Of a stretch of DNA of 64,000 bases, positions 49,631-63,767 are shown piece after piece (the first letter of the stretch is position 1; each line of letters starts with the position of its first letter). The stretch lies in the NCBI RefSeq assembly GCF_038871235.1, contig NZ_JAVZIN010000003.1:1-64000 (forward strand). The letters are read 5' to 3'. Source of the stretch: Candidatus Hadarchaeum sp. GTDB taxonomy: Archaea > Hadarchaeota > Hadarchaeia > Hadarchaeales > Hadarchaeaceae. The translations under genes were made by a program, and so were the position numbers. The notes under the pieces are model-generated. The model ran no database searches, was not told the origin of the DNA, and worked only from the letters and a program-made list of their open reading frames with translations.

Positions 49631-51814
49631 ATGAGCTGTGACAGGAGCATGACGACGGTGGGCACTGAGCGCGTGATGAAGTTCAAGTGTGGTGATTGTC
49701 GCGGTGACGCCTCGGTCGAAAAATCTCGTGAGTGCATGAAAGGAGTTCTTGAGGCGCTTATGGATGAGCCAGATATCGACGTGGTTATCCTTTCTGGGAC
49801 GTATGAGCACGAGTACAGCGGGCCCGGACTGTGGGCACTCAAGGAAATGGCAAAAATACTAAATGAGGCCCGTCGATGGTCTCTGGCTAATCTTGTCTCC
49901 GAGGGCTGCACGCGATGCGAAACCGCTCGCGATACCCAGCTTAGAAGGGCGCTTGAGGAGCTTTCCACAGATCCAGTGGCTGGCCACCGCAGGCTGCAGG
50001 AGTTATTTAATGCGATGAACGCGAAAAAGGAGCATGGGTCCAAAGCCTGTCAAGCCTGCCGTTCGGATTTTATCAGGAAATTTCTGGAACCGCTTTTGAG
50101 TTCCATTGAGGGCTCGACCCTTTTGAAGGCCGCGAGAACCGGTTTAAATTATACGGAGATTTTACAACCCCTCATCAGACCATGTTTTTTGAGCACACGC
50201 CTTAAGATGGAGCCGCCCACCGGAGGTGAACTCGTAGACTCATATGAGATCGAAAGCGGTGAGGTGAGGATATATCGCCTCCCTGATCAGCTACAGAACC
50301 TGTATTTTTTTATTCCATCCGAGTACCGCCTGATGCATGACCAAGTGAGGCTTCTTCAACATGCCCACCAGGAGATCGTCGACAATCACCCAAGGCTGGA
50401 TTCCGATGTAGTTCAGGCCCGTAAGCAGATCGTGCGTCTTGGCGAGAGGCTGATGATCGAGAAGGTGACAAAAGAGAAAATCTCGGTTTCAAGGGAAGAA
50501 ATTAGAAATTTGGCCTTGAGCCTATCTAGGTTCACCGCTGGACTGGGCTTGCTTGAATCTCTGCTTTCGGATCCAAAAATCCAAGATATTTATGTTGACG
50601 CCCCAGCGGGAAGAACACCGGTGCACCTGTTGCACCGTGACCATGACGCGTGCTTAACCAATGTCTTTCTCACTCCGGATGATGTTTGTTCGTTAGTCTC
50701 TCGGTTCCGTGCTTATAGCGGCCGGCCATTTTCAGAAGCCGACCCAGTTTTGGACCTTAACTTAGGTGAGGTGAGAATAGCTGCGATCGGGCCACCCCTC
50801 AGTCCTGGCGGCATCGCCTTTGCACTTCGCAGGCACAAACCCACTCCGTGGACGTTGCCTCAATTTATTCAAGCGAAGTTTTTGACCCCTTATGCGGCGG
50901 GGCTGCTCAGCCTGCTGATAGACTCACAGGTTTCTTTGCTGATAGCTGGCAGCCGCGGTGCGGGGAAGACCTCGCTGCTGGGCGCACTTATGTTGGAGAT
51001 CCTTCCTAAGTTCAGGATCATAACTATTGAGGATACCCGGGAACTTATGGTGGATCGGCTCCGCGAACTCGGCTTCAAGATTCAATCTCTGCAGGTTCAG
51101 TCGTCGGTCTTGGGCATACAAAGCGAACTCAGCGCTGAGGAGGCTCTCAGGGCAGCGCTTCGTCTTGGGGAATCGGTCTTGGTTATCGGCGAGGTGAGGG
51201 GTGAAGAGGCGCGCGTTCTCTATGAGGCAATGCGAGTCGGCGCCGCTGGCAGTTCGGTGATGGGTACTATTCACGGGACCACAGCTCGCGATGTTTTTGA
51301 GCGGGTTGTCAACGACCTCAAGATAACGCCGAGCTCCTTCAAGGCTACCGAGGCGATAGTGGTGGCGGCCCCCATCCGAATAAGGGGAGGTATTAATAGA
51401 GTTAGGCGGCTGGTCCAGATAGTTGAGGTCAGAAAGGACTGGCGTTATGACCCGACGGCCGAGGAAGGATTTGTACCTCTCATGTCTCATGATTACTCCC
51501 GCGATTGTTTGAGACCCACTCGGACTCTTCTCAGCGGAAGATCGGAGCTGATTGCCGGTATCGCGAGAAAGTGGGGTTTGGCGCCGCTTCAGGTCAGGCG
51601 CAATCTGGAATTTCGTGCTAGGGTTCAAGAGGATCTGGTAACTGAGGCGGCGATGGGGAGGCCTCACCTGCTTGAAGCCCCTTTTGTCCTTCGGGCCAAT
51701 CTAGCTTGGCACTCATTCTATGAGGACCAGCTCAAGCACGGAAGCGTGGACTATCGCCAGCTGTACCAAAGATGGCGGGAGTGGTTGAACTCAGCCAAAG
51801 AACAAGTAGCGTGA
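49631..51814 (+). CDS. Type II/IV secretion (TadA/FlaI/VirB11-like) ATPase with Cys-rich N-terminus
   Basis: GSRGAGKT, TIEDTREL, LRLGESVLVIGEVRG.EA, GTIHG; CxxC x3 in the N-terminus. Confidence 0.92.
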   Translation: MSCDRSMTTVGTERVMKFKCGDCRGDASVEKSRECMKGVLEALMDEPDIDVVILSGTYEHEYSGPGLWALKEMAKILNEARRWSLANLVSEGCTRCETARDTQLRRALEELSTDPVAGHRRLQELFNAMNAKKEHGSKACQACRSDFIRKFLEPLLSSIEGSTLLKAARTGLNYTEILQPLIRPCFLSTRLKMEPPTGGELVDSYEIESGEVRIYRLPDQLQNLYFFIPSEYRLMHDQVRLLQHAHQEIVDNHPRLDSDVVQARKQIVRLGERLMIEKVTKEKISVSREEIRNLALSLSRFTAGLGLLESLLSDPKIQDIYVDAPAGRTPVHLLHRDHDACLTNVFLTPDDVCSLVSRFRAYSGRPFSEADPVLDLNLGEVRIAAIGPPLSPGGIAFALRRHKPTPWTLPQFIQAKFLTPYAAGLLSLLIDSQVSLLIAGSRGAGKTSLLGALMLEILPKFRIITIEDTRELMVDRLRELGFKIQSLQVQSSVLGIQSELSAEEALRAALRLGESVLVIGEVRGEEARVLYEAMRVGAAGSSVMGTIHGTTARDVFERVVNDLKITPSSFKATEAIVVAAPIRIRGGINRVRRLVQIVEVRKDWRYDPTAEEGFVPLMSHDYSRDCLRPTRTLLSGRSELIAGIARKWGLAPLQVRRNLEFRARVQEDLVTEAAMGRPHLLEAPFVLRANLAWHSFYEDQLKHGSVDYRQLYQRWREWLNSAKEQVA

Positions 51815-51818
51815 AATC

Positions 51819-53330
51819 TTGCTGAAGAAAATTCCATTCTGTGTAAACTGGCGTGACAAACAGGAGGAGTCAAAAGCCTTAGGCGAAGTCCCGACCCTTA
51901 TCGGCTATCTCACCATGGCCATGAAAATAACGCCGAATCTAGAGCGAGCCTGTGCCTTTGCCAGCGAACAGCTCGGAGGTAAAATGGGTCAAGATCTGAG
52001 AAAAAAGATGTCGGAGTGCCATATGCGTCGATATTCCAGCGCTGATGAGGCACTGTTGAAGTTCTCGCAATGCTGGGAGAGGGCCTGCCCCGAACTCGGC
52101 CGGGCAATCTATCTCATCCGCAGTTCTGTTAGCGAGCTGAGGAAGAGCAGCCGGGAGATGACCTTGGATCGATCCCTTCAGCTGGTTCTGCATGGAGCTA
52201 GGCGGCGGGTGCGTGAATTCTCTTCAAAGATAAGCCCACCTACTCTGTTGATCTACAGCTTGGGTATTCTGCTCCCGCTGGTCTTCGTTGTCATCTTGCC
52301 GGTGCTTTCTGTAATCGAGCTGCGAGTGGGTCTGCCTCAGATAATCTTTATTTACTGTTTCTTACTGCCTTTGCTAGTCTATCTTCTGAGCAACAATGTC
52401 CTTTCCCGGCGACCGGCCACACATCAACCGCCAAATGTTTCGATTGGAGCGAGTCAGTTGCATTCGGCATTAATGGCCATTGCTTTTTCGATACCTGCGC
52501 TGGCCATTTGTTTTTGGCTTGATGCATCTCCTGATCTCAAGGCCTTAGCCGTTCTTTGGGCGATTGTTCTTAGCATTTCAGCATTTCTATATTTTACCTC
52601 CGTCCAAGCCTATCTTCACCGTGAGGAGATCGTTCAGATGGAGGGGGAGTTCAGCGATGCCTTGGTGCAGCTCGGCAACCGCATAAGCGAGGAGCGCCCG
52701 GCTGAGGAGGCCTTAGGGCACGTGGCAGCCACGATGGGTGGGAGCAAGCTCGCCGGTGTCTTCATGACTGCGGCTTCGAACGTTAACCTTGGCGGCATGG
52801 GCTTACGTGCGGCCTTGTTTGATGAGACACGTGGGGCACTTAGGCAGGTGAACTCAAACATGATTCGCGGAACATTGAAGATACTTGTGGACTTGGTCGA
52901 GAGGAACACCCGGGCCGCTGGTGAGGCGATTCTTCGGACGGCGCAGCATCTTCATGAGCTGAAAGAGGCCGAGGAAGAAATGAAACGATCGATGGCGGAG
53001 ATGGTTACTTCAATGCGGTCGGTGGCCATCTTCTTTGCGCCTTTGATCACCTCGATCGCGGCTAGGCTTCAGGGACTGCTGTCGGAAAAGGTAGCCTCGC
53101 TTGAGTTTTTTCTTTCAGCCGAGATTTCCCCTCCGGCCTTTTTATTCGTCCTCGGGCTGTACATCATTATCCTGACCATCATCCTGATCAACTATGTGGT
53201 TGAGATAGAACTGGGTGAGGATGGGCTGGCCAAGCGAATGGCGTTTGCAAGCGCTTTGCCGGTTTCAATGGTTGTTTTCACCGCGGGAGCGATATTAGGC
53301 GGGCAAGTTGTTGCTTTCCTTCTAGGTTAA
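51819..53330 (+). CDS. TadB/TadC (FlaJ-like) membrane platform, double domain
   Basis: PNLERA..FA, GILLPL, EFSDAL..LGNR..E..PAE.A, FFAPLI; directly after the ATPase. Confidence 0.82.
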   Translation: MLKKIPFCVNWRDKQEESKALGEVPTLIGYLTMAMKITPNLERACAFASEQLGGKMGQDLRKKMSECHMRRYSSADEALLKFSQCWERACPELGRAIYLIRSSVSELRKSSREMTLDRSLQLVLHGARRRVREFSSKISPPTLLIYSLGILLPLVFVVILPVLSVIELRVGLPQIIFIYCFLLPLLVYLLSNNVLSRRPATHQPPNVSIGASQLHSALMAIAFSIPALAICFWLDASPDLKALAVLWAIVLSISAFLYFTSVQAYLHREEIVQMEGEFSDALVQLGNRISEERPAEEALGHVAATMGGSKLAGVFMTAASNVNLGGMGLRAALFDETRGALRQVNSNMIRGTLKILVDLVERNTRAAGEAILRTAQHLHELKEAEEEMKRSMAEMVTSMRSVAIFFAPLITSIAARLQGLLSEKVASLEFFLSAEISPPAFLFVLGLYIIILTIILINYVVEIELGEDGLAKRMAFASALPVSMVVFTAGAILGGQVVAFLLG

Positions 53331-53363: not shown

Positions 53364-53440
53364 GCGGTGGTAGTCTAGCTTGGTTAGGACACGAGCTTGC
53401 CAAGCTCGCAGCGCGGGTTCGAATCCCGCCCACCGCACCA
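53364..53440 (+). tRNA. tRNA-Gly(GCC)
   Basis: Acceptor GCGGTGG/CCACCGC plus A plus encoded CCA; anticodon arm CGAGC-TT-GCC-AA-GCTCG; T-arm GCGGG-TTCGAAT-CCCGC; no intron. Confidence 0.97.
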
Positions 53441-53497: not shown

Positions 53498-54937
53498 ATA
53501 GATGGAGAGGTTCTGATTGGCCTCGTAGCGTATGGCGTGATTCTGATCGCCCTGGGTTTGTATAGTTACATCAAAGCCAAGAATAGACACACGGAAGAGG
53601 AATACTTTTTAGCTTCTCGTGAGTTGGGTTTCTGGGCTCTGGTTTGCACCGTTGGAGCCTCGTGGACGGGAATTTCGGCACTGATTTCCTATAATGCCGC
53701 CTATACTGGTGGCGTAAGCACTTGGTGGATCATGGGATTCCCAACTGTTTTCGCCACCGCCATCGTTGCTGTTTTAGCCTATAGGATCAGGAAAACAAAC
53801 GCGATTTCCCAACCCCAGATCTTCGAATGGCGATACGGACCGAAGGTCAGGATAATTCTAGCAGTGATCGGCATCTGGTACATGATGACTTGGGCGGCAT
53901 CAGAACTTATCGGTGGCGGTGAATCCCTTTCTGTAGCGTTGGGCATGCCATACTTTTTAGGAATATTGGCCATTACATTAATAATCTACTTCTATACCGT
54001 CATTGGTGGCTTCAGGGCGGTTATATACACCGACATATTTCAGTTCATTTTGCTCAACGTTGTGTGCATTGCGCTAAGCCTTATTGCCCTGAGTTCCATT
54101 GGCGGATTTGGAGCCATCGCTTTGCTCCCACAAGAGCTGGGTGTTCCGGGTTATCTGGACTTTTTTGATAACTTTAGGTATAATTTTGCTTACGCCATAT
54201 CCTTTTCCTTGGCTTGGTTCTTAGAGGCAGACATGTGGCAGAGAATACTGGGCGCTAGAAATCCCAAGCTGGCGATGAAGGCGTTCTTGGTTGCGGCAAT
54301 ATTGTTCATCCCCTTATACTTCATTTATACGCTGGGAGGTATGGCAGCGGCAAAGTTTGTGCCTGGCTTGGAAGGCGTTGGGGTTCTGCCTTCTTTAGCA
54401 AAAGCAGCATTGCCTCCCATATTGTTTGGTTTTGCCCTTGCAGGCATTTTGGCCACTGTGATGTCATCCGCCGACACCGCCATAAACTCGGGCGCTTTGT
54501 TGTTAACAGAGGACGTTTATCACAGATATATTAACAAGAAAGCAACTACCAAGGGATTATTCGTGGTGGGGCTGATTGCCACCACCGTTATAACCGTATT
54601 GGCCTTCGGCGTCGGAGTTACTCTTCCAGACATGCTGTGGGTGTTGTGGCTGGGAGCCGATATTCTGGCCTGCGGTTGTCTGGCTCCACTGATTGGTGGA
54701 TTTATCTGGAAGCGGGCAAATGAGCTAGGGGCCATTGCTGGGATGATAGTGGGAGGCGTGTTTGCATTCTACAACTACGTTGGCGATCTGTTTGGCATTG
54801 AAGTGCCCAGGCCTTGGCCTGAGTATCCGTTTTACCTTCCTGTTGGTATCCTGCTGTCAGCGATCGCCTTTATCTTAGTTTCCTTGGCCACAAAACCACA
54901 GCCTGAAAAGTTTAAGGCGTTAAAACCGAGTGATTAA
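53498..54937 (+). CDS. Sodium:solute symporter (SSS) family
   Basis: EYFLASR, RYG, YTVIGGFRAVIYTD.FQ, WQRI, MSSAD. Track start is GTG 53537; possible ATA start at 53498. Confidence 0.9.
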   Translation: MDGEVLIGLVAYGVILIALGLYSYIKAKNRHTEEEYFLASRELGFWALVCTVGASWTGISALISYNAAYTGGVSTWWIMGFPTVFATAIVAVLAYRIRKTNAISQPQIFEWRYGPKVRIILAVIGIWYMMTWAASELIGGGESLSVALGMPYFLGILAITLIIYFYTVIGGFRAVIYTDIFQFILLNVVCIALSLIALSSIGGFGAIALLPQELGVPGYLDFFDNFRYNFAYAISFSLAWFLEADMWQRILGARNPKLAMKAFLVAAILFIPLYFIYTLGGMAAAKFVPGLEGVGVLPSLAKAALPPILFGFALAGILATVMSSADTAINSGALLLTEDVYHRYINKKATTKGLFVVGLIATTVITVLAFGVGVTLPDMLWVLWLGADILACGCLAPLIGGFIWKRANELGAIAGMIVGGVFAFYNYVGDLFGIEVPRPWPEYPFYLPVGILLSAIAFILVSLATKPQPEKFKALKPSD

Positions 54938-54939
54938 AG

Positions 54940-56790
54940 ATGGCTCCAGCTCCCTGCTACTGCGGGAAGATTCTGGAGGTCGATTTGTCTAGTATCAATA
55001 TTGTTAAGCGTTCGGTGGATCCAAATGTGGTAAGGAAGCTGGTGGGTGGTAAAGGTCTGGCTGCTTGGTTGCTGTATAAAATGGTTAAGCCAGGGATTGA
55101 TCCATTTGACGAACAGAATGTGCTGATTTTTGCTACCGGTCCACTGACGGGCACCATAGCCCCTTCACAGAGGGGATTGGTCTGTGCCAAGTCCCCGCTG
55201 ACGGGAACTTTTTCTGATTCCTATTTCGGCGGCCACTTCATCCAAGAGCTCAAATACGCTGGTTATGATGCTCTGGTGGTGAAGGGAAGAGCGGAGAGGT
55301 TGAGCTATCTTTGGATCGACGATGATCACGTTGAGGTAAAGGACGCCACTACTTTGAAGGGACAGGATACTACTCAGACCAACGTTTCTATTAAGCGGGA
55401 ACTGGGGGATTCCCGGGTCAAGGTGGCCTGTATTGGTCCGGCGGGCGAGAAAAAGGTGAGGTTTGCTCTGATCGACTGTGATGTCAAGAGACAAGCGGGC
55501 CGTGGCGGTCTTGGGGCGGTGATGGGATCAAAGAACCTTAAAGCCGTGGCCATCCGCGGCACGGGCCCCGTTGAGGTGGCGAGGCCTCAAGAGTTCTTCG
55601 AAATAGCGAAAAAGTTCCACCGCATTTTAATCGAAAGCGAGGCCGTGCAGGCGGTGTGGAGCCGGTACGGTACGGCGGGGTCGGTTGAGTTCTCCAACAT
55701 GCAGGGCTTCTTCCCGACCAAGAACTTCCAAGATGGACATATCGAGAATGGTGAAAGGCTCTCAGGACTTTCGCAGAGCAAGCTGCTCTGGCTGAGGCGG
55801 GCGGCCTGCTTCTCCTGTCCGATCATCTGCTCCGCCATCTCAGTTATCAGAAATGGTCCTTACAGCGGCACGGTGTTGGACGGCATAGAGTATGAGACCA
55901 CAGGGCTACTGGGAGCCAACTGCGGACTCACCGACCCAGAGGTGGTCGCCTACGCCAACCACCTCTGTGATGAGCTCGGTCTGGACACCATCACTGCTGG
56001 TGGCGTGATCGGTTTCACCATGGAACTGTTCGAGAGAAGGATCTGGAGACACCCAGAGCTGGAGGCGCTGAGACTGAGATTTGGCAACGCTGAGGCAGTG
56101 CTCGAGCTGATTAGTAAGATAGCCTACCGTGAAGGAGTTGGTGATTTGCTGGCTGAGGGGGTGAAGCTAGTCGCGGAGAAGGTTGGAGGAAGTGCTAAGG
56201 ATTACGCTATACACATCAAAGGATTGGAGACCCCAGCTTGGCCACCCCGAGGTTCTCCAGGGATGGGGCTAGCACTAGCGACTGCTGACAGAGGCGGTTG
56301 TCACGAGAGAGGATGGCCGGTGGGCTATGAAGTTGAGGGAATTCCCGGGCCTTCTGGTCCGGTGGAGCGTCTGTCGCTCCAAGGTAAGGCCGAGATAGTA
56401 AAGTGGGAGCAGGACTGGTTTGCTGCGGTTGACACCTTGGTTGGCTGCGATTTCAGCCGAACCGGACTCACGCCGGAGCATTCAGCACAACTTCTTTCTG
56501 CAGCCACTGGATGGGACATCAGTGCTGACGAATTCCTGAGAATTGGTGAGCGAGTTTGGAACTTAACACGAATGTTTAATGTCCGCGAGGGCTTCACACG
56601 GAAGGATGATGACCTGCCTAGACGATTTAAGGAGGAGCCGCTACCCTTCGGACCAGCAAAAGGGCACATGGTCAGTTCCAGCGATCTGAACCGGATGCTT
56701 GATGATTATTACAAGTTAAGGAAATGGGACTCGAACGGAGTGCCGACAAAGGAGAAGCTGGCGGAGCTGGGCCTTGAGGAGTTCCTGTGA
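54940..56790 (+). CDS. aor: Tungsten aldehyde:ferredoxin oxidoreductase family
   Basis: KSPLTG, LKYAGYD, IGPAGE, GRGGLGAVMGSKNLKA, CFSCPIIC, EYET, DELGLDTI, RGGCH. Confidence 0.93.
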   Translation: MAPAPCYCGKILEVDLSSINIVKRSVDPNVVRKLVGGKGLAAWLLYKMVKPGIDPFDEQNVLIFATGPLTGTIAPSQRGLVCAKSPLTGTFSDSYFGGHFIQELKYAGYDALVVKGRAERLSYLWIDDDHVEVKDATTLKGQDTTQTNVSIKRELGDSRVKVACIGPAGEKKVRFALIDCDVKRQAGRGGLGAVMGSKNLKAVAIRGTGPVEVARPQEFFEIAKKFHRILIESEAVQAVWSRYGTAGSVEFSNMQGFFPTKNFQDGHIENGERLSGLSQSKLLWLRRAACFSCPIICSAISVIRNGPYSGTVLDGIEYETTGLLGANCGLTDPEVVAYANHLCDELGLDTITAGGVIGFTMELFERRIWRHPELEALRLRFGNAEAVLELISKIAYREGVGDLLAEGVKLVAEKVGGSAKDYAIHIKGLETPAWPPRGSPGMGLALATADRGGCHERGWPVGYEVEGIPGPSGPVERLSLQGKAEIVKWEQDWFAAVDTLVGCDFSRTGLTPEHSAQLLSAATGWDISADEFLRIGERVWNLTRMFNVREGFTRKDDDLPRRFKEEPLPFGPAKGHMVSSSDLNRMLDDYYKLRKWDSNGVPTKEKLAELGLEEFL

Positions 56791-56800
56791 GGTAGGTCCT

Positions 56801-57211
56801 ATGCCAATCAAGCTGGAAATTCACCCGGAAAAATGCGTTGGCTGCAGGTCATGTGAGCTGGCTTGTTCCTTCAAAAAGACCGGCGTGTTTAGCCCGAGTC
56901 AGTCGCGGATATCGGTCACGATCAGCAACCCTCGGACAATAATGTATCCTGTGGCCTGCATCCAGTGCGTCGAGCAGTCATGCGTCAAGGCCTGTCCGGT
57001 TGGGGCGCTAAGAAAAGACGAGGTCACCAACGCCATTGTCTTTGACCGCGATATCTGTACGGGCTGCGGCCTGTGTGTGAAAAGCTGTCCGTATTCAGCG
57101 ATAAGGATGGATGAAAGGAGCAGAAAGCCCCTGATTTGCGATCTTTGCGGCGGTGATCCCGAGTGTGTAAAGTGGTGCCCCACTGCCGCTCTTGAAGCCA
57201 AAAGAGTTTGA
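56801..57211 (+). CDS. 4x[4Fe-4S] electron-transfer subunit (AorA/DmsB-like)
   Basis: CVGCRSCELAC, CIQC..CVKACP, CTGCGLCVKSCP, CDLC..CVKWCP. Confidence 0.93.
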   Translation: MPIKLEIHPEKCVGCRSCELACSFKKTGVFSPSQSRISVTISNPRTIMYPVACIQCVEQSCVKACPVGALRKDEVTNAIVFDRDICTGCGLCVKSCPYSAIRMDERSRKPLICDLCGGDPECVKWCPTAALEAKRV

Positions 57212-57237
57212 AGTTCTAGTTGTTCGCTCAGTCTAGT

Positions 57238-58446
57238 TCAGATATTTCCTTCCCAAATATCTCTTAGCAATGCCTTGATATTTTCTAGCGTAATTACTGC
57301 AGGATTGATATCGGGCAGTCCGTAGTTGTACTGTTGTTCCTTGGCGATGAAAGCGGCCAGTTCATCCAAGTCTTCACGTGGGACGTTTAACTCCTTCAGA
57401 CTGATGGGCATGTTGAGGTCTAGGAGCAGCTCCTTGAGTCCCTCGACCACTTGAAGCGCTCTTTTTTTCACATCTTTCGCCGGTTCATCGGTGAAGAATT
57501 GTGCCAGCGAGGCGACCCTCTCCGGCCAAGCGGCGATATTGAATTTAGTTATATAAGGCAGAACCAAGCCGCAGGCGGCTCCATGAGGTATGTGGTAACG
57601 GGGACCAATGGTTTCACCAAGACAGTGGCCAATGTTGACGGCAGCAGGTGTGGTTATCGCGATGCCTCCGTAGGTGGCTGCCAAGGCCATGCCTGCTCTC
57701 GCGACCAGATCTTTTCCGTGATGATAGGCCCTTCTCAGATGCCTAGCGGCGAGTTCCACAGCCCGGTAGGCGTAGGTGTCTGAGAACATGTTAGCCGTGA
57801 ATGAAAGAACGGCCTCAACTCCATGGGAGAGGGCATCAAGTCCGGTGTGCGCAGTCAGTTTCGGTGGCATCGACTGAGAAAGAGTTGGGTCAACAATGGC
57901 TACTTCCGAGACGATTTTTGGACTCATCACGAAACCCTTGTAGCCCTTCTCTTCAATAACCACCGCGTAACCCGAGGCCTCGCTGCCGGTACCGGCGGTG
58001 GTGGGGATGAGTATCTTGGGGACTGGTTGCACCTTTATGCTGTCCTGAAGGTAGGTGATGTAGTCTTTCATTGGTCCCGGGTTGGTGACGGCAGCGGAGG
58101 CAAATTTAGCCATATCTAGAGCACTGCCGCCTCCAAAGCCGATGACCAAGGCTGGCTTTTCGGCTCTAGCCTTTTCAGCAACCTTCTCCACCATGCTTAT
58201 GGTGGGTTCTTGCGTGGCTTGGTCATAAACGGTCAGGGTGTATTTTTCTTCCTCCAGTGGTTTTAGGATCCTGTTCACCAGCCCTATGTTGATTAGGTTC
58301 TTGTCGGTTACGATCAGGATTTTAGAACCCTTCAGAGCTAAGGGCTCTATTTCGCGGCAAATGTTATCAACCGCATTTGGTCCAAAGATATACTTTTTTG
58401 GGTAATTGAACTCCACATATCCAATATTTGAGATTTCCTCAGACAT
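57238..58446 (-). CDS. Iron-containing (type III) alcohol dehydrogenase
   Basis: GGGSALD, PTTAGTGSE, DALSH, GH, PHG. Confidence 0.92.
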   Translation of the reverse strand: MSEEISNIGYVEFNYPKKYIFGPNAVDNICREIEPLALKGSKILIVTDKNLINIGLVNRILKPLEEEKYTLTVYDQATQEPTISMVEKVAEKARAEKPALVIGFGGGSALDMAKFASAAVTNPGPMKDYITYLQDSIKVQPVPKILIPTTAGTGSEASGYAVVIEEKGYKGFVMSPKIVSEVAIVDPTLSQSMPPKLTAHTGLDALSHGVEAVLSFTANMFSDTYAYRAVELAARHLRRAYHHGKDLVARAGMALAATYGGIAITTPAAVNIGHCLGETIGPRYHIPHGAACGLVLPYITKFNIAAWPERVASLAQFFTDEPAKDVKKRALQVVEGLKELLLDLNMPISLKELNVPREDLDELAAFIAKEQQYNYGLPDINPAVITLENIKALLRDIWEGNI

Positions 58447-58448
58447 GG

Positions 58449-58459
58449 GTGAAGTTCAC
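58449..58459. promoter_or_regulatory. Palindrome GTGAA-G-TTCAC, candidate operator of the Fe-ADH gene
   Basis: Lies between a TTTTTATTTA box and the ATG on the minus strand. Confidence 0.35.
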
Positions 58460-58511
58460 ACGTTAGTAAATAAAAATGTTTTGTCCAAATTTTTTGAAAT
58501 TTTTAATCGGA

Positions 58512-59894
58512 CTAAATAAGAACAGGCACGCCTAGATCTATTATTTTCTTTTTCACGTTATTATACAGTTCAGTGTATTCTTTAGTTGGTACCACACGCT
58601 TGATGTCGTAACATTCTTGGAATTTTTTACCCAGCGGGGCGTCTTTGATCTTCCCCTCGTATTCTTTCAAGAGTTTCTTAGCTAACTCGTTTGTCTCATC
58701 CCTCTTTAATCCCGCCTTGGCTGCAGCGCGGCCTACCTCACAGGCCATTCTTGCTTCCACAGGGGTGGTCCTATCTTTGTATTTATTCCTTGCTGCAAAA
58801 AATTCCCAGAGGTTAGCACCGGAGACGGTGCTTACTAAACCATGGGTGGCGGCCTCAAGGAGTACCATCTCTGTGCATGGTCCAGCAGCGCCGATACCGT
58901 TTGACATGCTAAGGAAGGGAGAATTTCTTGCTAAAGCTTGATAGACCAAGCTGATCATCCAAAGAAGATTTCTTGAGGTATTATTGAGTTGATTTATATC
59001 AAAGGGGAAAAACGTGTCGAGGTGTCCTTGATTCACCATTAATCCCTGTAAATGAGTCGCCACGCTAACTATTGCTGTGCCTTCTACACCACCGGCATAT
59101 CCGCCAACCATCGGACCAAATAATGACATGATGATGTATCCGCATTTGTGGAAGTTGACCATTCTGTTAAGACCTCCCCAGTCGATCTTCAGTTCTGATA
59201 TCGTTCCGACCATTCTGCCATCGGTAGTCCTAACGCCCCATTCGGGATTGCTCACAGAGATTTGGGCGGTGTCCGACAGCGCGGTTTGAACATCCGCCAA
59301 GTATATGTTTGGCCTGCCCACTCGCCTCACCGCTTCCCTTATCATCAAGGCATGTGCTCCAGCTCCAGCAACATCAGTTGGTGCTTTTGACCTTACCTTT
59401 TCACCCCACAGTTCATCAAGCACTCCCGCCCCGACGCCATCCGCAAGCGGTTCCAGCGCGTAGGCCATTTCAACGATGGCGAAAAGTTCCTCGGAAAAAG
59501 GCAGGCTCGGGCTGAACACGCAAAAAGGTCTTCTTCTGTCTTCAATATCCCTGTGATATACTTCCCTTCTTTCCGTTCCAGATCCGACCACAATTTTTTC
59601 CGGAAAGCTGATCAAGGCTTCCTTTATCTCTTCTTCGGTAAACATGATTCTTCTGGAGGTCTCGAGGCACAGGGTCCCCGTGTGCAGGTAGAGTTCTAAG
59701 CCTGCCTTCCAGAGATCGTCTGCCAAGCTGTTGTCCGATGGAATAATGGTTTCACCATCGAACTTTATATCATACTCCTTTATCAACTCCTTAATCTTTG
59801 GAAACAGTATTTTTGTATCGAAGTCTTTTTCCATACACAAGGGGCCGTTTTCAGATCTTCTTAAAACTTCAGGTATTCTCCAGGGTGGTGCCAT
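58512..59894 (-). CDS. mtmB: MtmB family methyltransferase, non-pyrrolysine
   Basis: Full length 460 aa; GRPN, ELKID, PMVGGYAGG.EGT, AGPCTEM, GKKFQECYD. The Pyl position is Ala (GCG, 59295-59297). Confidence 0.93.
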   Translation of the reverse strand: MAPPWRIPEVLRRSENGPLCMEKDFDTKILFPKIKELIKEYDIKFDGETIIPSDNSLADDLWKAGLELYLHTGTLCLETSRRIMFTEEEIKEALISFPEKIVVGSGTERREVYHRDIEDRRRPFCVFSPSLPFSEELFAIVEMAYALEPLADGVGAGVLDELWGEKVRSKAPTDVAGAGAHALMIREAVRRVGRPNIYLADVQTALSDTAQISVSNPEWGVRTTDGRMVGTISELKIDWGGLNRMVNFHKCGYIIMSLFGPMVGGYAGGVEGTAIVSVATHLQGLMVNQGHLDTFFPFDINQLNNTSRNLLWMISLVYQALARNSPFLSMSNGIGAAGPCTEMVLLEAATHGLVSTVSGANLWEFFAARNKYKDRTTPVEARMACEVGRAAAKAGLKRDETNELAKKLLKEYEGKIKDAPLGKKFQECYDIKRVVPTKEYTELYNNVKKKIIDLGVPVLI

Positions 59895-59895
59895 T

Positions 59896-60558
59896 TCACG
59901 CTCCTCCTTTTAACATTAGTTCTTTAGCTATATTCACACCCTTAACGGCAGAATCCGCCCATCCATCAGCACCTATCTCCTCCGCCCACTCCTTAGTTAC
60001 AGGTGCGCCCCCAATCAGAACGAGGAATTTCTCCTTCTGCGAGATGCCCTTTAAGATTTCGATGACCTCCCTTTGGGAGGGCATGGATGTCGTCATTAGT
60101 GCCGATAGAGCGATGATGTCTGCTTTTGTTTCGTTTGCCCTTTTGACCACTTCTAGAGAGGGCACATCTCTTCCGAGATCGTAAACCTCAAATCCGTTTA
60201 CTTTAAGGAGAAAAGCCACAATGTTTTTCCCAATATCGTGGATGTCACCAGCAACTGTAGCGATTACCACCTTTCCGAATTTTCTTTCCGCGGCCATCAA
60301 TTTTCTCTTTTCAATTTCTGACATTATCACGTCAGACGCAGCTTTCATGACATCCGCGATTAGCATTAGCTCAGGTAAAAATAGCTCTCCGTTTTCATAT
60401 TTCTCTCCCAAAGTTTTCGCTATGGAAGCAAACTCATCAAAAATTTTAGTTGGCTCAATATTTTTGTTTAAAATCTCTACAACAACAGACTTAGCGACAT
60501 CTTCATTATACTCAAAGATACTTTGTCTCAGTTTTTCGAACAGTTCATCATTACTCAT
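59896..60558 (-). CDS. Cognate corrinoid protein (MtmC/MttC-like)
   Basis: FLPELM, GDIHDIGKNIV (DxHxxG), SALMTTSM, IGGAPV, IGAD. Confidence 0.95.
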   Translation of the reverse strand: MSNDELFEKLRQSIFEYNEDVAKSVVVEILNKNIEPTKIFDEFASIAKTLGEKYENGELFLPELMLIADVMKAASDVIMSEIEKRKLMAAERKFGKVVIATVAGDIHDIGKNIVAFLLKVNGFEVYDLGRDVPSLEVVKRANETKADIIALSALMTTSMPSQREVIEILKGISQKEKFLVLIGGAPVTKEWAEEIGADGWADSAVKGVNIAKELMLKGGA

Positions 60559-61988
60559 TTCTTTCCCTTTGCGCCTGCTTTCTCAAGTTTACTGATTCCA
60601 ACGTATAGAACGACAGATATTGCCATTCCTATTACTGCATTTTCAATCCAGTTGAATATGTAGATATATTCCAAATAGATGTAGATGATATAGGTTACTA
60701 TAATCGAGATCAGCGCCCCGTTTCTCGTACCTCCCTCCTTCCAAAATAGTCTCAAAAATAGCGGCCCGGTTAGAACCGCAGCCAAGCCTGTTGAGCCAAT
60801 GATCGCCAGATATGCAAGCAGCTCCGGTGGCCTAGTAATCACCCAAGTGAGGCTGCACAGAGCGAGAATTATCACCAATAATCTTGACACCCAGAACCGT
60901 GTACGGTCAGAAACTTTGTATTTTTCCCACACTGGTTTTAGCGCCGTTTCAAAATTTGCGCATGAAGCTATCAGATAGGAGTCCACGCTTGAAATTATTG
61001 CGTTTACAATACCAAGGGAGCCAAAGACCATAAGAGCCTCTGGCAAGTAGCGGCTAAACATTTCCGGCAAGGCTGTATCTGGATCGGCTAGTCCAGGTAA
61101 AACCACTCTTGCCGTTAGACCAACCAATACCGGAAAAGAGGTTAATAGTGTTAGCAAGGAAACAATTGTCGCTACGGTCGCTCTTCTTGTTGCAGGCATC
61201 TCGGCAACGGAGATATATTTCTGTGAGAATGACGGCGCAAATTGGAAGGCCGTATATGCGATCACGATAGCTACAAAGGTCCAAGGAACGGTGCTTGCAT
61301 ATGGCACTCCGGTTGTTGGATAGACCAGTTCAGGATCTATAGCAGCAGCTCTTTCAAAAAGAGGGCCGAAACCGCCGACTGCGGCAAAGATTATGTATAT
61401 GCATAAAAAGCAAGCAGCAATCATCCATACTATTGAAACTACATCGGTGTACATGACTGCTCTGAGACCGCCTTGCGTCACGTAGATTATGGTAATAATC
61501 ATAAACACTAAAATGGCAAACAGAGTCGGAATTCCAAGCATTCTGGACAAAATTGCACCTGCGGCTTTAAATTGTGCAGTGACGAACATCATGTACATTA
61601 TGAAAATAAGTGCAGCAACTAAAGCTCTTAAGGCGTTGCTATCTCCATGAGTGTAACCAATTAGGTCGCCGATTGACGTGGCTTTATATTTTGCGATCCA
61701 GCTCTTGTAATACGGCACGGCAAAATAGACGACTAAAAATATTCCCGGAATCCACGCTATTGGTGTGGATAATAGTTCGATGACTCCGTAAGAATATCCG
61801 ACGCCAGGGGCCCCTATATAAGCCCACCCACTTGCGGAGGCAGCGGCAAGAGAGCAGGCAAACAAATAGGGTGATAATCTCCAGCCACCGGTAAAAAACT
61901 CCTCCCTCGTCATCGTTCTTCGCATCGCCAAAGTTCCCAGACCTATCATCAATATTATGAACGCTATTAAACCGATCCAAGCAATCAT
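60555..61988 (-). CDS. Sodium:solute symporter (PutP/PanF-like)
   Basis: EFFTGG, SGWAYIGAPG, AQFKAAG, GGLRAVMYTD, AIISSVDS; ATGA overlap with the corrinoid gene. Confidence 0.92.
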   Translation of the reverse strand: MIAWIGLIAFIILMIGLGTLAMRRTMTREEFFTGGWRLSPYLFACSLAAASASGWAYIGAPGVGYSYGVIELLSTPIAWIPGIFLVVYFAVPYYKSWIAKYKATSIGDLIGYTHGDSNALRALVAALIFIMYMMFVTAQFKAAGAILSRMLGIPTLFAILVFMIITIIYVTQGGLRAVMYTDVVSIVWMIAACFLCIYIIFAAVGGFGPLFERAAAIDPELVYPTTGVPYASTVPWTFVAIVIAYTAFQFAPSFSQKYISVAEMPATRRATVATIVSLLTLLTSFPVLVGLTARVVLPGLADPDTALPEMFSRYLPEALMVFGSLGIVNAIISSVDSYLIASCANFETALKPVWEKYKVSDRTRFWVSRLLVIILALCSLTWVITRPPELLAYLAIIGSTGLAAVLTGPLFLRLFWKEGGTRNGALISIIVTYIIYIYLEYIYIFNWIENAVIGMAISVVLYVGISKLEKAGAKGKK

Positions 61989-62000
61989 ATCAATTCACCC

Positions 62001-62183
62001 TTATTTTTTGCCTTCCTCCTGTTTTCTTGCGATGAGATAGCAGATAACCCCCACCAAAAACCATACTGGAAAAGAGACCCAAATCGAAGCACCTATGGAA
62101 ACAAAACTTGCGGTGACAAACACAATTATTATACCGATCAACGTAACAAGAAAGTACAACATTTCTTCTTTCATCACTATCAA
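62001..62183 (-). CDS. Small two-TM protein, probable SSS accessory subunit
   Basis: Two TM helices, 12 bp upstream of the SSS gene, which has a GGTGA RBS. Confidence 0.6.
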   Translation of the reverse strand: MIVMKEEMLYFLVTLIGIIIVFVTASFVSIGASIWVSFPVWFLVGVICYLIARKQEEGKK

Positions 62184-62293
62184 TAAAAAAATTGAAAATC
62201 GATTTTTATAAAAAGTTTGGAATCACAGGTACTAAATTTTAATTCTAACCTGAAATTCAAAAACGATTTTATTGATTCAAGAGAGGAAATTCG

Positions 62294-62479
62294 ATGTCAA
62301 AATTGGATGATATCCTTAGTGTATTTGATGATGGTAAAGTGCATGGAGTAGAGGAGATCATCAAAAGATTTTCACTACCCGGTGATGTGGTTTTAAAGGT
62401 GCTTTATTTTTTAGCCGAGTTTGGGTTCATTAATTTTGATGGAACCCAAGGAAAAAGTACGGACTTTTCTAAAAAATGA
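62294..62479 (+). CDS. Small wHTH-like protein
   Basis: DDILSVF.DGK.H..EEI, VL.FLAEFGFI; GAGGA RBS. Confidence 0.55.
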   Translation: MSKLDDILSVFDDGKVHGVEEIIKRFSLPGDVVLKVLYFLAEFGFINFDGTQGKSTDFSKK

Positions 62480-62485
62480 TTTCTA

Positions 62486-62794
62486 TTAAAGCTGAAGAAG
62501 ATTCTGAATTTCATTATATTTTTTCAAAAACTCATTTCCCTTCTCAGTGACCGACCATTTAATCGGGTGGGTTTTTTCAATCTTTATCAGCCCCATCCTA
62601 AGTAACTCATCCAGATATTTTTGGCATCGGTTGAAGTTCAGATTGGCGCGGTAGACAATGTGGCTTTTTCTTGAGCAAGTTCCTATGGCATTTAAAATAT
62701 CTACATATAAGGTGATTATATTTCTCCTTTTCCTATCGGAGTTGACCTCCTTCAATTTGCCCGCCTTCTCAGATGTGTTTCTGCTGGCACACAT
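62486..62794 (-). CDS. wHTH regulator (HTH_45/COG3432-like)
   Basis: RR....YVDIL, KSHIVYRANLN, YLDEL..GLI, TEKG.EFL. Confidence 0.85.
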   Translation of the reverse strand: MCASRNTSEKAGKLKEVNSDRKRRNIITLYVDILNAIGTCSRKSHIVYRANLNFNRCQKYLDELLRMGLIKIEKTHPIKWSVTEKGNEFLKKYNEIQNLLQL

Positions 62795-62889
62795 CCATGG
62801 TTGAGTTTACTTAGTGGTGTATAAAAAGGTAACAATCGACTGGCCCATTTGCAATTGGCCAATGCCTGAAGAAAAGAATTAACTTGGGT

Positions 62890-63300
62890 TCACCTGTGGT
62901 CGGAATCTAAATCTTTTTCAGGATTTGGTTTTAATTCAGACCCTTCTCCATGGACAACGATCTGCAGCTTTTTCTTCAGCTGCTCCCGGATCTGATCCAT
63001 GATTAAAAAATCCGTCTCAATCCTCTTTTTCAGGGCTTGCATTTTTTTCTCCAGTCTTTCAAGTTCTTCCATTTCACGTTGAAGATTTTCTAAAGTTGAG
63101 CCCAGCCTTGCTAAGACATGTAACTGTTCGTAGGCGTCGCTAGGGTTGTTCAACATTCCACGTTTCGATGCATCCGCCATGTTGTCTTTTATCTGATTTA
63201 ACAGTTTTTCCATCTTGGTTAGCTTTTCTTTGGGGATTATCATTGAGTCTAGCGTTGTCGTAATCTCTGCCCACAGTTTAGCGATTTCCTCAGTGCCCAA
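62890..63300 (-). CDS. Coiled-coil hypothetical protein
   Basis: 136 aa, E/K/L/M-rich heptads. Confidence 0.55.
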   Translation of the reverse strand: MGTEEIAKLWAEITTTLDSMIIPKEKLTKMEKLLNQIKDNMADASKRGMLNNPSDAYEQLHVLARLGSTLENLQREMEELERLEKKMQALKKRIETDFLIMDQIREQLKKKLQIVVHGEGSELKPNPEKDLDSDHR

Positions 63301-63410
63301 CCGTGCACCCGAGAAGAAGACCCTAGGGCCCGAAAAAATGCTTTTCTTATTTTTAATCTATCTAATTTCGACACAAAAATTGATATATTTAGAAGGATGT
63401 TGATAGTACA

Positions 63411-63767
63411 GTGGTAAAGATGTCAGAGAGTTCTGGAAGAAAAGATGGCGCCGGTAGCAGCTTAGTTCATAAACTGGTCAAAAGTGAGCTGGAGTACCTC
63501 TTTTTGGCTTTGCTAATGAGGCGGCCGATGTGCGGCACCGACATCATTAAGGAAATCCATGTAAAGTTCGGTCTGTTGCTCAGCCCAGGCACGGTTTATC
63601 CATTGTTACATGATTTGGAGACAAGAGGATTGATACAACATGAGCCGGGGACGAAGATAAAGATCTATAGTACGGTCAAAGGGATGAGGCAGAAAATCAA
63701 AGACATGTTGGAACAGCGAATCAGTGACCTGAAGCAGGTTATTGAATTTCTCCTGCAGGGCGAATGA
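63411..63767 (+). CDS. PadR-family regulator
   Basis: PMCGTDII..I..KFG.LLSPGTVYPLL..LE..GLI. Confidence 0.88.
   Translation: MVKMSESSGRKDGAGSSLVHKLVKSELEYLFLALLMRRPMCGTDIIKEIHVKFGLLLSPGTVYPLLHDLETRGLIQHEPGTKIKIYSTVKGMRQKIKDMLEQRISDLKQVIEFLLQGE

Follow-up and report, generated by a model that had tools for sequence, protein, structure and literature searches.

The window analysed here, the whole of a 64,000-nucleotide stretch of DNA from the hot-spring archaeon Candidatus Hadarchaeum sp. (C3:1-64000 of the source draft genome G000; 1.2 Mb in 16 contigs, 94.75% complete), carries a pyrrolysine (Pyl)-free homologue of the methylamine methyltransferase MtmB, which is encoded together with a carrier of the SSS family and a corrinoid protein, next to genes for an iron-containing alcohol dehydrogenase (Fe-ADH, hereafter also ADH), an aldehyde oxidoreductase (AOR), and a polyferredoxin (Fdx). 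A preliminary description of this sequence had joined these genes into one pathway in which a methylated amino alcohol is oxidised and demethylated. Our analysis favours, with a probability of roughly 0.7, two independent units lying side by side: a cassette for the uptake and demethylation of an N-methylated solute (58512-62794), and a separate SSS2-AOR-Fdx/Fe-ADH module for the interconversion of aldehyde, alcohol, and acid. Judged by comparison of relatives, the redox module appears to have its own promoter and to be conserved in a subclade of the genus.

Gene organisation of the locus

On the minus strand, the transporter operon runs from a 60-aa two-helix membrane open reading frame (ORF; 62001-62183) through a carrier, SSS1 (60555-61988), and a corrinoid protein (59896-60558) to the MtmB-family protein (58512-59894). 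These genes are tightly packed: SSS1 follows the small ORF after 12 bp and shares an ATGA overlap with the corrinoid gene, which in turn is 1 bp away from MtmB; another 65 bp separate MtmB from Fe-ADH (57238-58446, minus strand; PF00465 and PF25137). Convergent on Fe-ADH is a plus-strand operon (53537-57211) that consists of a second carrier, SSS2 (53537-54937; PF00474, 150.8 bits), AOR (54940-56790; AFOR_N, 253 bits; AFOR_C, 469 bits), and the polyferredoxin, which was assigned by a family profile search (56774-57211); here, SSS2 and AOR are 2 bp apart, and AOR and Fdx overlap by 17 bp. ORFs, families, and junctions all agree with the layout reported in the preliminary description. Moreover, a contig from a second public run (X2) covers 58120-60866 with 0 differences, and because it spans the junction between ADH and MtmB, this junction is not an assembly artefact. 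No cassette-less form was seen among the contigs of four DNA runs that shared at least 90% likeness with the window.

The cassette and the ADH/AOR block occur separately in relatives

The evidence that carries the two-unit reading comes from a DNA search of seven congeners followed by blastn and ORF comparison, the relatives' assemblies being fragmented. The whole SSS2-AOR-Fdx-ADH block is kept in G033 (84% nucleotide identity; ADH, 93% amino acid identity) and, at full length, in G039 (79% nucleotide identity; ADH, 90% amino acid identity); G036 keeps ADH (92% amino acid identity) and part of AOR, and SSS2 was not found there in the blastn and ORF comparison. A tRNA-Gly(GCC) gene (53364-53440, plus strand; ARAGORN) marks the left edge of this conserved block, whose homology with G033 begins at 53432. 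At the other end, the homology of all three genomes stops at window position 58484/58485, 38 bp before the ADH start codon. It resumes at 62963 after 92 bases in G039 and at 62929 after 53 bases in G036, so these two genomes are without window 58485-62962, a variable segment delimited by the blastn break points between relatives. In G034, the missing part is 58688-63461, and a 57-residue C-terminus of MtmB (84% identical) is left directly upstream of ADH (95% identical); here, the cassette was lost by deletion, and ADH stayed under selection. Part of the SSS2-AOR-Fdx operon is retained in G034 as well. Fe-ADH orthologues are 90-95% identical in G033, G034, G036, and G039, and the cassette is present in none of the four.

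The converse arrangement was found on the metagenome contig L147, whose left flank corresponds to that of the window segment (57-80% identity between the flank proteins). Its cassette comprises a winged-helix gene, a 61-aa ORF (orf61; both described below), the small membrane protein (68% identity), SSS1 (90%), the corrinoid protein (85%), and MtmB (93%), and the gene downstream of MtmB is of the UbiD family, not ADH.

A TATA-like box, AAAACATTTTTATTTA, lies about 20 nt before the ADH ATG, within a conserved region (58447-58484, minus strand) that we take to be the ADH promoter. Because this box is kept in G033, G036, and G039 whatever lies upstream, ADH would, by sequence, form a transcription unit of its own.

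Gene proximity across the genus was counted with a distance cut-off of 5 kb; these counts are rough, with fragmented assemblies and at least 25 MtmB matches in each of G037 and G038. Of the 78 MtmB matches listed, 5 have an AOR match within this distance, a rate that by a rough estimate is about that expected by chance, given that genomes of about 1 to 1.8 Mb carry 4 to 15 AOR matches each. Only two of the 78 listed matches lie within 5 kb of Fe-ADH, namely the window gene and the G034 remnant. Fe-ADH itself was found within 5 kb of AOR in 9 of 20 matches. Furthermore, beside the members of the 13-sequence MtmB clade to which the window gene belongs (see below), neither ADH nor AOR occurs in any of the other 6 locus types. 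Overall, ADH belongs with the AOR block and not with the MtmB cassette.

Weighing a single oxidation and demethylation pathway

The single pathway proposed earlier would have a methylated amino alcohol (choline, dimethylethanolamine, or N-methylethanolamine) imported, oxidised by ADH and AOR to an N-methyl amino acid, and finally demethylated by MtmB. The short distance between MtmB and ADH is consistent with this proposal, and the top NCBIfam match of ADH is indeed a choline dehydrogenase, the type III Fe-ADH equivalog GbsB (NF053866). However, that match reaches 232.4 bits, far short of the 550 required, and is no better than those to sulfoacetaldehyde and lactaldehyde reductases; four further equivalogs are nearly equal to it, including SarD (229.5), lactaldehyde reductase (225.5), and ErcA (219.6); the protein is a generic Fe-ADH (PF00465, 156 bits). 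Added to this are the separate and conserved putative ADH promoter, the double dissociation described above (ADH/AOR without the cassette in G036, G039, and G034; the cassette without ADH in L147), the lack of enrichment of AOR or ADH near MtmB among the listed matches of the genus, and their absence beside the other locus types of the clade. The linkage of MtmB, ADH, and AOR is thus not conserved in relatives, and the preliminary description had itself named such an absence of linkage as the observation that would tell against it. We therefore consider the single pathway very improbable, and the idea of a ready-made route for methylated amino alcohols falls away for this locus.

Several observations nevertheless weigh against our preferred reading. 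First, AOR and Fe-ADH genes lie 3.3 kb downstream and 4.5 kb upstream, respectively, of a second MtmB-corrinoid pair in G000 (C3:104513-106551), an arrangement that is kept in G039 and, as to its ADH part, in G036. Second, in the Anaerolineae loci L079 and L057, which carry non-Pyl MtmB proteins of other subclades, Fe-ADH lies upstream on the same strand, so that it is found in the corrinoid-MtmB strand block of both of the two Anaerolineae loci with upstream sequence; similarly, a convergent Fdx-AOR pair follows two MtmB genes in the Hecatella locus L060. Third, the slot upstream of the present ADH repeatedly attracts methyltransferase genes, since in G033 it holds an MtaA-like URO-D gene together with a corrinoid protein gene that is truncated where the contig ends (C114, L086:2-1338). 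Fourth, the searches turned up no known fate for the methyl group, so that both the direction of its transfer and the purpose are inferred. Finally, the only characterised non-Pyl MtmB, the methyltransferase MtqB of the MtqB/MtqC tetramethylammonium/choline:corrinoid system of Methanococcoides methylutens Q3c, demethylates choline and prefers this amino alcohol, according to the published report (Kashyap et al. 2026, PMC13044021). The link between ADH/AOR and MtmB looks real in other subclades, and an amino-alcohol substrate is plausible for parts of the MtmB family; for the present cassette, the neighbouring genes lend such a substrate no support.

The gene order at these other loci may be recorded here. 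The second pair in G000 opens a longer stretch (C3:104513-111059) in which it is followed by an OTCase-like gene, an amidohydrolase gene, and AOR, with an APC permease gene and Fe-ADH upstream. In L079 (6300-12626, CAYUPJ010000018.1), the genes for Fe-ADH, a corrinoid protein, a Pyl-free MtmB, a radical-SAM activase, and a PFL-like glycyl-radical enzyme form a single strand block, behind which lie an SDR gene and a LIV-type binding protein gene; this is a candidate bacterial pathway in which an amino alcohol or similar compound would undergo both demethylation and glycyl-radical chemistry. In L057, Fe-ADH lies upstream of a corrinoid-MtmB-MtmB series, which is followed by a class-III aminotransferase gene.

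A looser connection between the two units was also weighed, in which the demethylated amine or amino acid would be turned into an aldehyde by enzymes encoded elsewhere and then be handled by the neighbouring AOR or ADH, the adjacency of cassette and module being weakly selected. Such a connection would suit the class-III aminotransferase genes that adjoin relatives both in the MtmB clade of the window (L053) and in the Anaerolineae clade (L057), the proximity of two of the six full-length G000 MtmB genes to AOR (within 5 kb), and the other methyltransferase pair that fills the same slot in G033. On the other hand, the genome has 7 AORs, which implies that AOR serves general aldehyde oxidation, the genus rate of 5 in the 78 matches listed is about chance by the rough estimate given above, and L147 keeps its cassette without the ADH/AOR module. 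This connection is accordingly improbable in our view, and two separate units remain the preferred reading.

As a module in its own right, the redox block has familiar counterparts. AOR and Fe-ADH make up aldehyde modules in fermentative anaerobic archaea, for example Pyrococcus and Thermococcus, and the block resembles the AOR modules of these genera in its adjacent polyferredoxin, its nearby Fe-ADH, and the presence of several paralogues in the genome (7 AORs, four of them with a homologous polyferredoxin adjoining, and 3 Fe-ADHs). Unlike those modules, the AOR operon is headed here by an SSS carrier (SSS2). The SSS2 orthologue in G034 (C47:2048-3431) matches in two pieces, residues 2-58 and 63-466, owing either to a frameshift or to misassembly.

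A Pyl-free member of the MtmB family

The MtmB homologue matches the PF05369 profile from position 5 to position 449 of 450 with 356.7 bits (cut-off 25), which places it in the MtmB family, and its reading frame contains no in-frame stop. The MtmB of M. barkeri (PDB 1L2Q/1NTH) matches it at an E-value of 4.3e-78 (residues 13-456 versus 15-456). The cassette thus resembles M. barkeri MtmB1/MtmC in its full-length match and in the corrinoid gene beside the methyltransferase gene. Pyrrolysine 202 of MtmB is the catalytic residue that binds methylamine. Unlike in M. barkeri MtmB1, Pyl202 is replaced by Ala in a different loop (Y-L-A-D-V), and the best PylS_Cterm match in G000 reaches 39.7 bits against a cut-off of 178. 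The protein is therefore not the monomethylamine methyltransferase MtmB proper, which is recognised by an in-frame UAG at the Pyl202 position together with PylS, and the earlier assignment as a non-Pyl MtmB stands. Because of the Ala at this position and the lack of a PylS match over the cut-off in G000, monomethylamine would be an unlikely substrate.

A tree of 66 MtmB-family sequences (LG+G4, quick search) places the window MtmB as sister to a Bathyarchaeia protein (65% identity; SH-aLRT 99). Both fall into a clade of 13 sequences (support 100), together with three other G000 paralogues, a Thermoproteota sequence, and a Heimdallarchaeota sequence. Within the same tree, all other MtmB paralogues of G000 have near-identical orthologues in congeners, and the window MtmB has none. 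Its identity to Pyl-type and Methanosarcinales homologues is 31-37%. The residue at the Pyl position differs among the paralogue groups, being Ala in that of the window and Gln, Val, or Thr in others. The Heimdallarchaeota member of the clade (L054:6803-9383, chromosome CP070695.1) has Lys at this position, and its gene is preceded, at a distance of 23 bp, by one for an M20-family peptidase.

A question that follows is whether the cassette acts, in the manner of MtqB, on a quaternary amine (choline or tetramethylammonium), with no part played by ADH and AOR. The window protein shares with MtqB both its Pfam family and the lack of Pyl, and the SSS family includes choline carriers. The published work (PMC13044021) shows that Pyl-free MtmB homologues were already known, one of them with a demonstrated function; it describes a non-Pyl MtmB active on choline and tetramethylammonium and reports such homologues in Asgard archaea. 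The likeness to MtqB/MtqC extends to a Pyl-free PF05369 protein with an adjacent corrinoid protein, and to an MtaA/MtbA-type enzyme and RamA encoded elsewhere in the genome. The differences are more specific. The window MtmB groups with Hadarchaeum, Bathyarchaeia, other Thermoproteota, and Heimdallarchaeota sequences, in a clade apart from L078, the sole non-Pyl Methanosarcinales sequence in the tree (not confirmed as MtqB), whose long branch lies close to the Pyl clade. The low identity to Pyl-type and Methanosarcinales homologues points the same way, and the importers next to the sister paralogues are of the LIV-type ABC class, not BCCT or OpuA-type betaine/choline carriers. In addition, the cassette, unlike MtqB/MtqC, includes an SSS importer and two small genes (the winged-helix gene and orf61, a putative DNA-binding protein), and Hadarchaeum, unlike the host of MtqB/MtqC, has no McrA (0 of 8 genus genomes), which means that the methyl group cannot end as methane. 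An MtqB-like function for a quaternary amine is thus rather unlikely.

Corrinoid protein, SSS1, and small genes of the cassette

The corrinoid protein has both expected domains (B12-binding, 95.3 bits; B12-binding_2, 49.3 bits) and the motif D-I-H-D-I-G (DxHxxG), and its gene adjoins that of MtmB, which together identify it as a methyltransferase-cognate corrinoid protein of the MtmC/MtbC/MtgC type. None of the named subtypes applies, as TIGR02370 gives 191 bits where 215.3 would be required, and the scores for the MtgC and MtbC equivalogs also stay below their cut-offs. Likewise, SSS1 clearly belongs to PF00474 (131.9 bits; cut-off 22.8) and falls short of the PanF (136 versus 328 bits) and PutP (109 versus 515 bits) equivalogs. 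A database of 5.8 billion proteins yielded, among the candidates that were scored, just two relatives with an identity above 30% (90% and 46%), and no orthologue was found in the 65 other Hadarchaeota genomes, where the best match is 28%. SSS1 thus represents a very rare SSS lineage. It is presumed to import the substrate of the cassette.

The 60-aa ORF at the head of the transporter operon matches no Pfam or NCBIfam family. Its homologue in L147 has 57 aa and is 68% identical over 53 residues, which suggests that the small membrane ORF is probably a real gene. Because this alignment starts at residue 4, the true start is likely the ATG at 62174, giving a protein of 57 aa. The small two-helix protein is a probable accessory subunit of SSS1.

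Two further small genes lie beyond it. The first, orf61 (62294-62479, plus strand), is divergent from the transporter operon and has no Pfam match; it is intact in L147 (55% identity over 56 aa) at the same relative position and in the same orientation, and could possibly encode a second small DNA-binding protein. The second, at the upstream end of the cassette (62486-62794, minus strand), encodes a winged-helix protein of the HTH_45/Sso10a family (PF14947, 67.3 bits; NF053610 Sso10a_fam, 60.5 bits against a cut-off of 60). It is kept in L147 (60% identity) and in G033 (C151, 63%), is absent from G036 and G039, and is a candidate regulator of the cassette. In G033, this gene stands at the end of the separate contig C151. 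Both small genes probably serve to regulate the cassette.

Age and constraint of the cassette

All six cassette genes are intact in both G000 and L147. Between these two, the proportions of nonsynonymous (pN) and synonymous (pS) differences are 0.036 and 0.69 for MtmB, 0.063 and 0.69 for SSS1, and 0.21 and 0.73 for the small membrane protein. The synonymous sites are equally saturated in the cassette (pS 0.69-0.86) and in the flanks (0.59-0.75), which indicates that the cassette is old in the lineage. Comparison of these sequences thus points to a cassette that is old, strongly constrained, and dispensable, with either one ancient gain or repeated losses behind its present distribution. The GC content of 58485-62962 is 0.432, within the lowest 1% of 2274 equal-length genome windows. 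Recent horizontal transfer, which this low GC content and the Bathyarchaeia sister might suggest, was rejected as unproven, the synonymous sites of the cassette being as saturated as those of its flanks.

Methyl-transfer partners and the fate of the methyl group

The preliminary description had noted that the window lacks MtaA/MtbA, MtgA/MtrH, and RamA genes and had the methyl group passed to a carrier encoded elsewhere. The absence of these genes was confirmed, and the second methyltransferase and the activase are indeed encoded outside the window. The related URO-D, Pterin_bind, and RACo matches in G000 are all off the window, on contigs C6, C1, C13, and C4, and MtrH has no match genome-wide. 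A stand-alone MtaA-family gene lies at C1:32234-33316, in addition to a weaker URO-D family gene; an MtaB gene is followed by an MtaA-MtaC fusion (C6:4619-8029; the fusion itself at C6:6272-8029); and the search for ramA, which had been recommended, located a single RamA gene at C4:6326-8284.

These partners serve a genome rich in methyltransferases. Seven MtmB-family matches were found in G000, of which six are full length and none has a stop, along with six stand-alone corrinoid proteins and three Pyl-free MttB genes, of which one is flanked by a corrinoid gene on one side and an MtmB gene on the other. Altogether, about 10 substrate:corrinoid methyltransferases are encoded: 6 MtmB-type, 3 MttB-type, and MtaB.

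The profile searches for known methyl routes had a different outcome: in the G000 draft, which is 94.75% complete, McrA, MtrH, CdhC, CdhD, MCH, MTHFR, and FTHFS gave no match, so that the genes recommended for a search along with ramA (mcr, mtrH, and those of the Wood-Ljungdahl pathway) did not turn up. With 0 matches to each of these families, neither methylotrophic methanogenesis nor Wood-Ljungdahl-linked methylotrophy can be assigned to G000, and McrA is missing from all 8 genomes of the genus. By gene content, then, the organism is predicted to be a non-methanogen. The only Pterin_bind protein of G000 was considered as an MtgA-type methyltransferase and rejected; it passes the equivalog of dihydropteroate synthase (DHPS; 198.9 versus 162.6 bits), as which it is identified, and scores 31.9 bits against a cut-off of 259 with the methyl-THF:corrinoid model (THF, tetrahydrofolate). 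Of the earlier proposal of a non-methanogenic methylotrophic module, the non-methanogenic part was upheld by the absence of McrA from the genus, and the methylotrophic part became doubtful, as no known methyl route was found.

This gene content also bears on a comparison with bacterial non-Pyl MttB systems. The betaine system MtgB/MtgC of Desulfitobacterium hafniense and its relatives shares with the cassette a Pyl-free methyltransferase homologue, a cognate corrinoid protein, and a linked importer of N-methylated solutes, with the difference that MtgB is of the PF06253 family and the window protein of PF05369. In bacterial MtgB systems, the methyl group passes to tetrahydrofolate through an MtgA-type enzyme. 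Unlike them, G000 has DHPS as its only Pterin_bind protein, and MTHFR and FTHFS were not found.

The many methyltransferases, MtaA, and RamA, combined with the lack of any of the known methyl routes, open the possibility that the cassette belongs to a strategy of demethylating in order to eat. In such a strategy, Hadarchaeum would want the demethylated carbon-nitrogen skeleton, and the methyl group would go via MtaA to a thiol and then be disposed of by an undescribed route, for example by excretion of a methylated thiol or by biosynthesis. We offer this as a tentative idea whose odds are low.

A working model for the cassette

Under the two-unit reading, the following sequence of events can be proposed. 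SSS1 and its small subunit would import an N-methylated compound; MtmB would bind this compound and hand one N-methyl group to the Co(I) form of the corrinoid protein; an off-locus MtaA-family methyltransferase (C1:32234-33316 or C13:22510-23616) would move the methyl group to a thiol acceptor; and RamA (C4:6326-8284) would reactivate oxidised corrinoid.

As to the substrate, we would guess at an N-methyl amino acid or amine in preference to an amino alcohol, because the sister paralogues and closest relatives of the window MtmB adjoin LIV-type ABC importers, a class-III aminotransferase (L053), and an M20 peptidase (L054). The type of importer differs by paralogue group, being SSS in that of the window and LIV-type ABC or APC in others. 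Taken with the neighbours of the closest relatives, the differences between groups in the residue at the Pyl position and in the importer type would fit a diversification of the paralogue groups over N-methyl amino acids or amines.

In the open-access literature, we found no paper on MtmB-type genes of Hadarchaeum. The cassette described here is a clean, conserved, and self-contained unit, and this makes it a good candidate for expression and substrate screening. Its presence in some members of the genus and absence from others also means that habitats or enrichments can be compared to find the substrate. The most interesting point lies at another level, since it is in the genome as a whole, and not just at this locus, that no known methyl sink was found: about 10 methyltransferases would collect methyl groups without methanogenesis or either branch of the Wood-Ljungdahl pathway.

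Other observations

Just upstream of the tRNA-Gly gene and the AOR block, the window contains a pair of genes (49631-53330) encoding a FlaI/TadA-like secretion ATPase (727 aa) and a 503-aa protein with a weak FlaJ/ArlJ-like match. In G039, an extra gene of 349 aa lies between the tRNA gene and SSS2. There are hints that the AOR block may itself sit in a variable region beside the tRNA gene. ARAGORN reported only 22 tRNA genes in G000, three of them with odd anticodon loops, which suggests that the genome has intron-containing tRNA genes missed by this program.

In the congeners G037 (C6:24676-28171, L153) and G038 (C22:3355-9158, L154), each with at least 25 MtmB matches and without McrA, an mtmB gene carries a single in-frame TAG at the pyrrolysine position, in the loop G-I/A-I-*-G-P-E-T, and the same contig has a PylS_Cterm match of 246 bits (cut-off 178). 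These sequence features suggest that there are Pyl-using, non-methanogenic members of Hadarchaeum.

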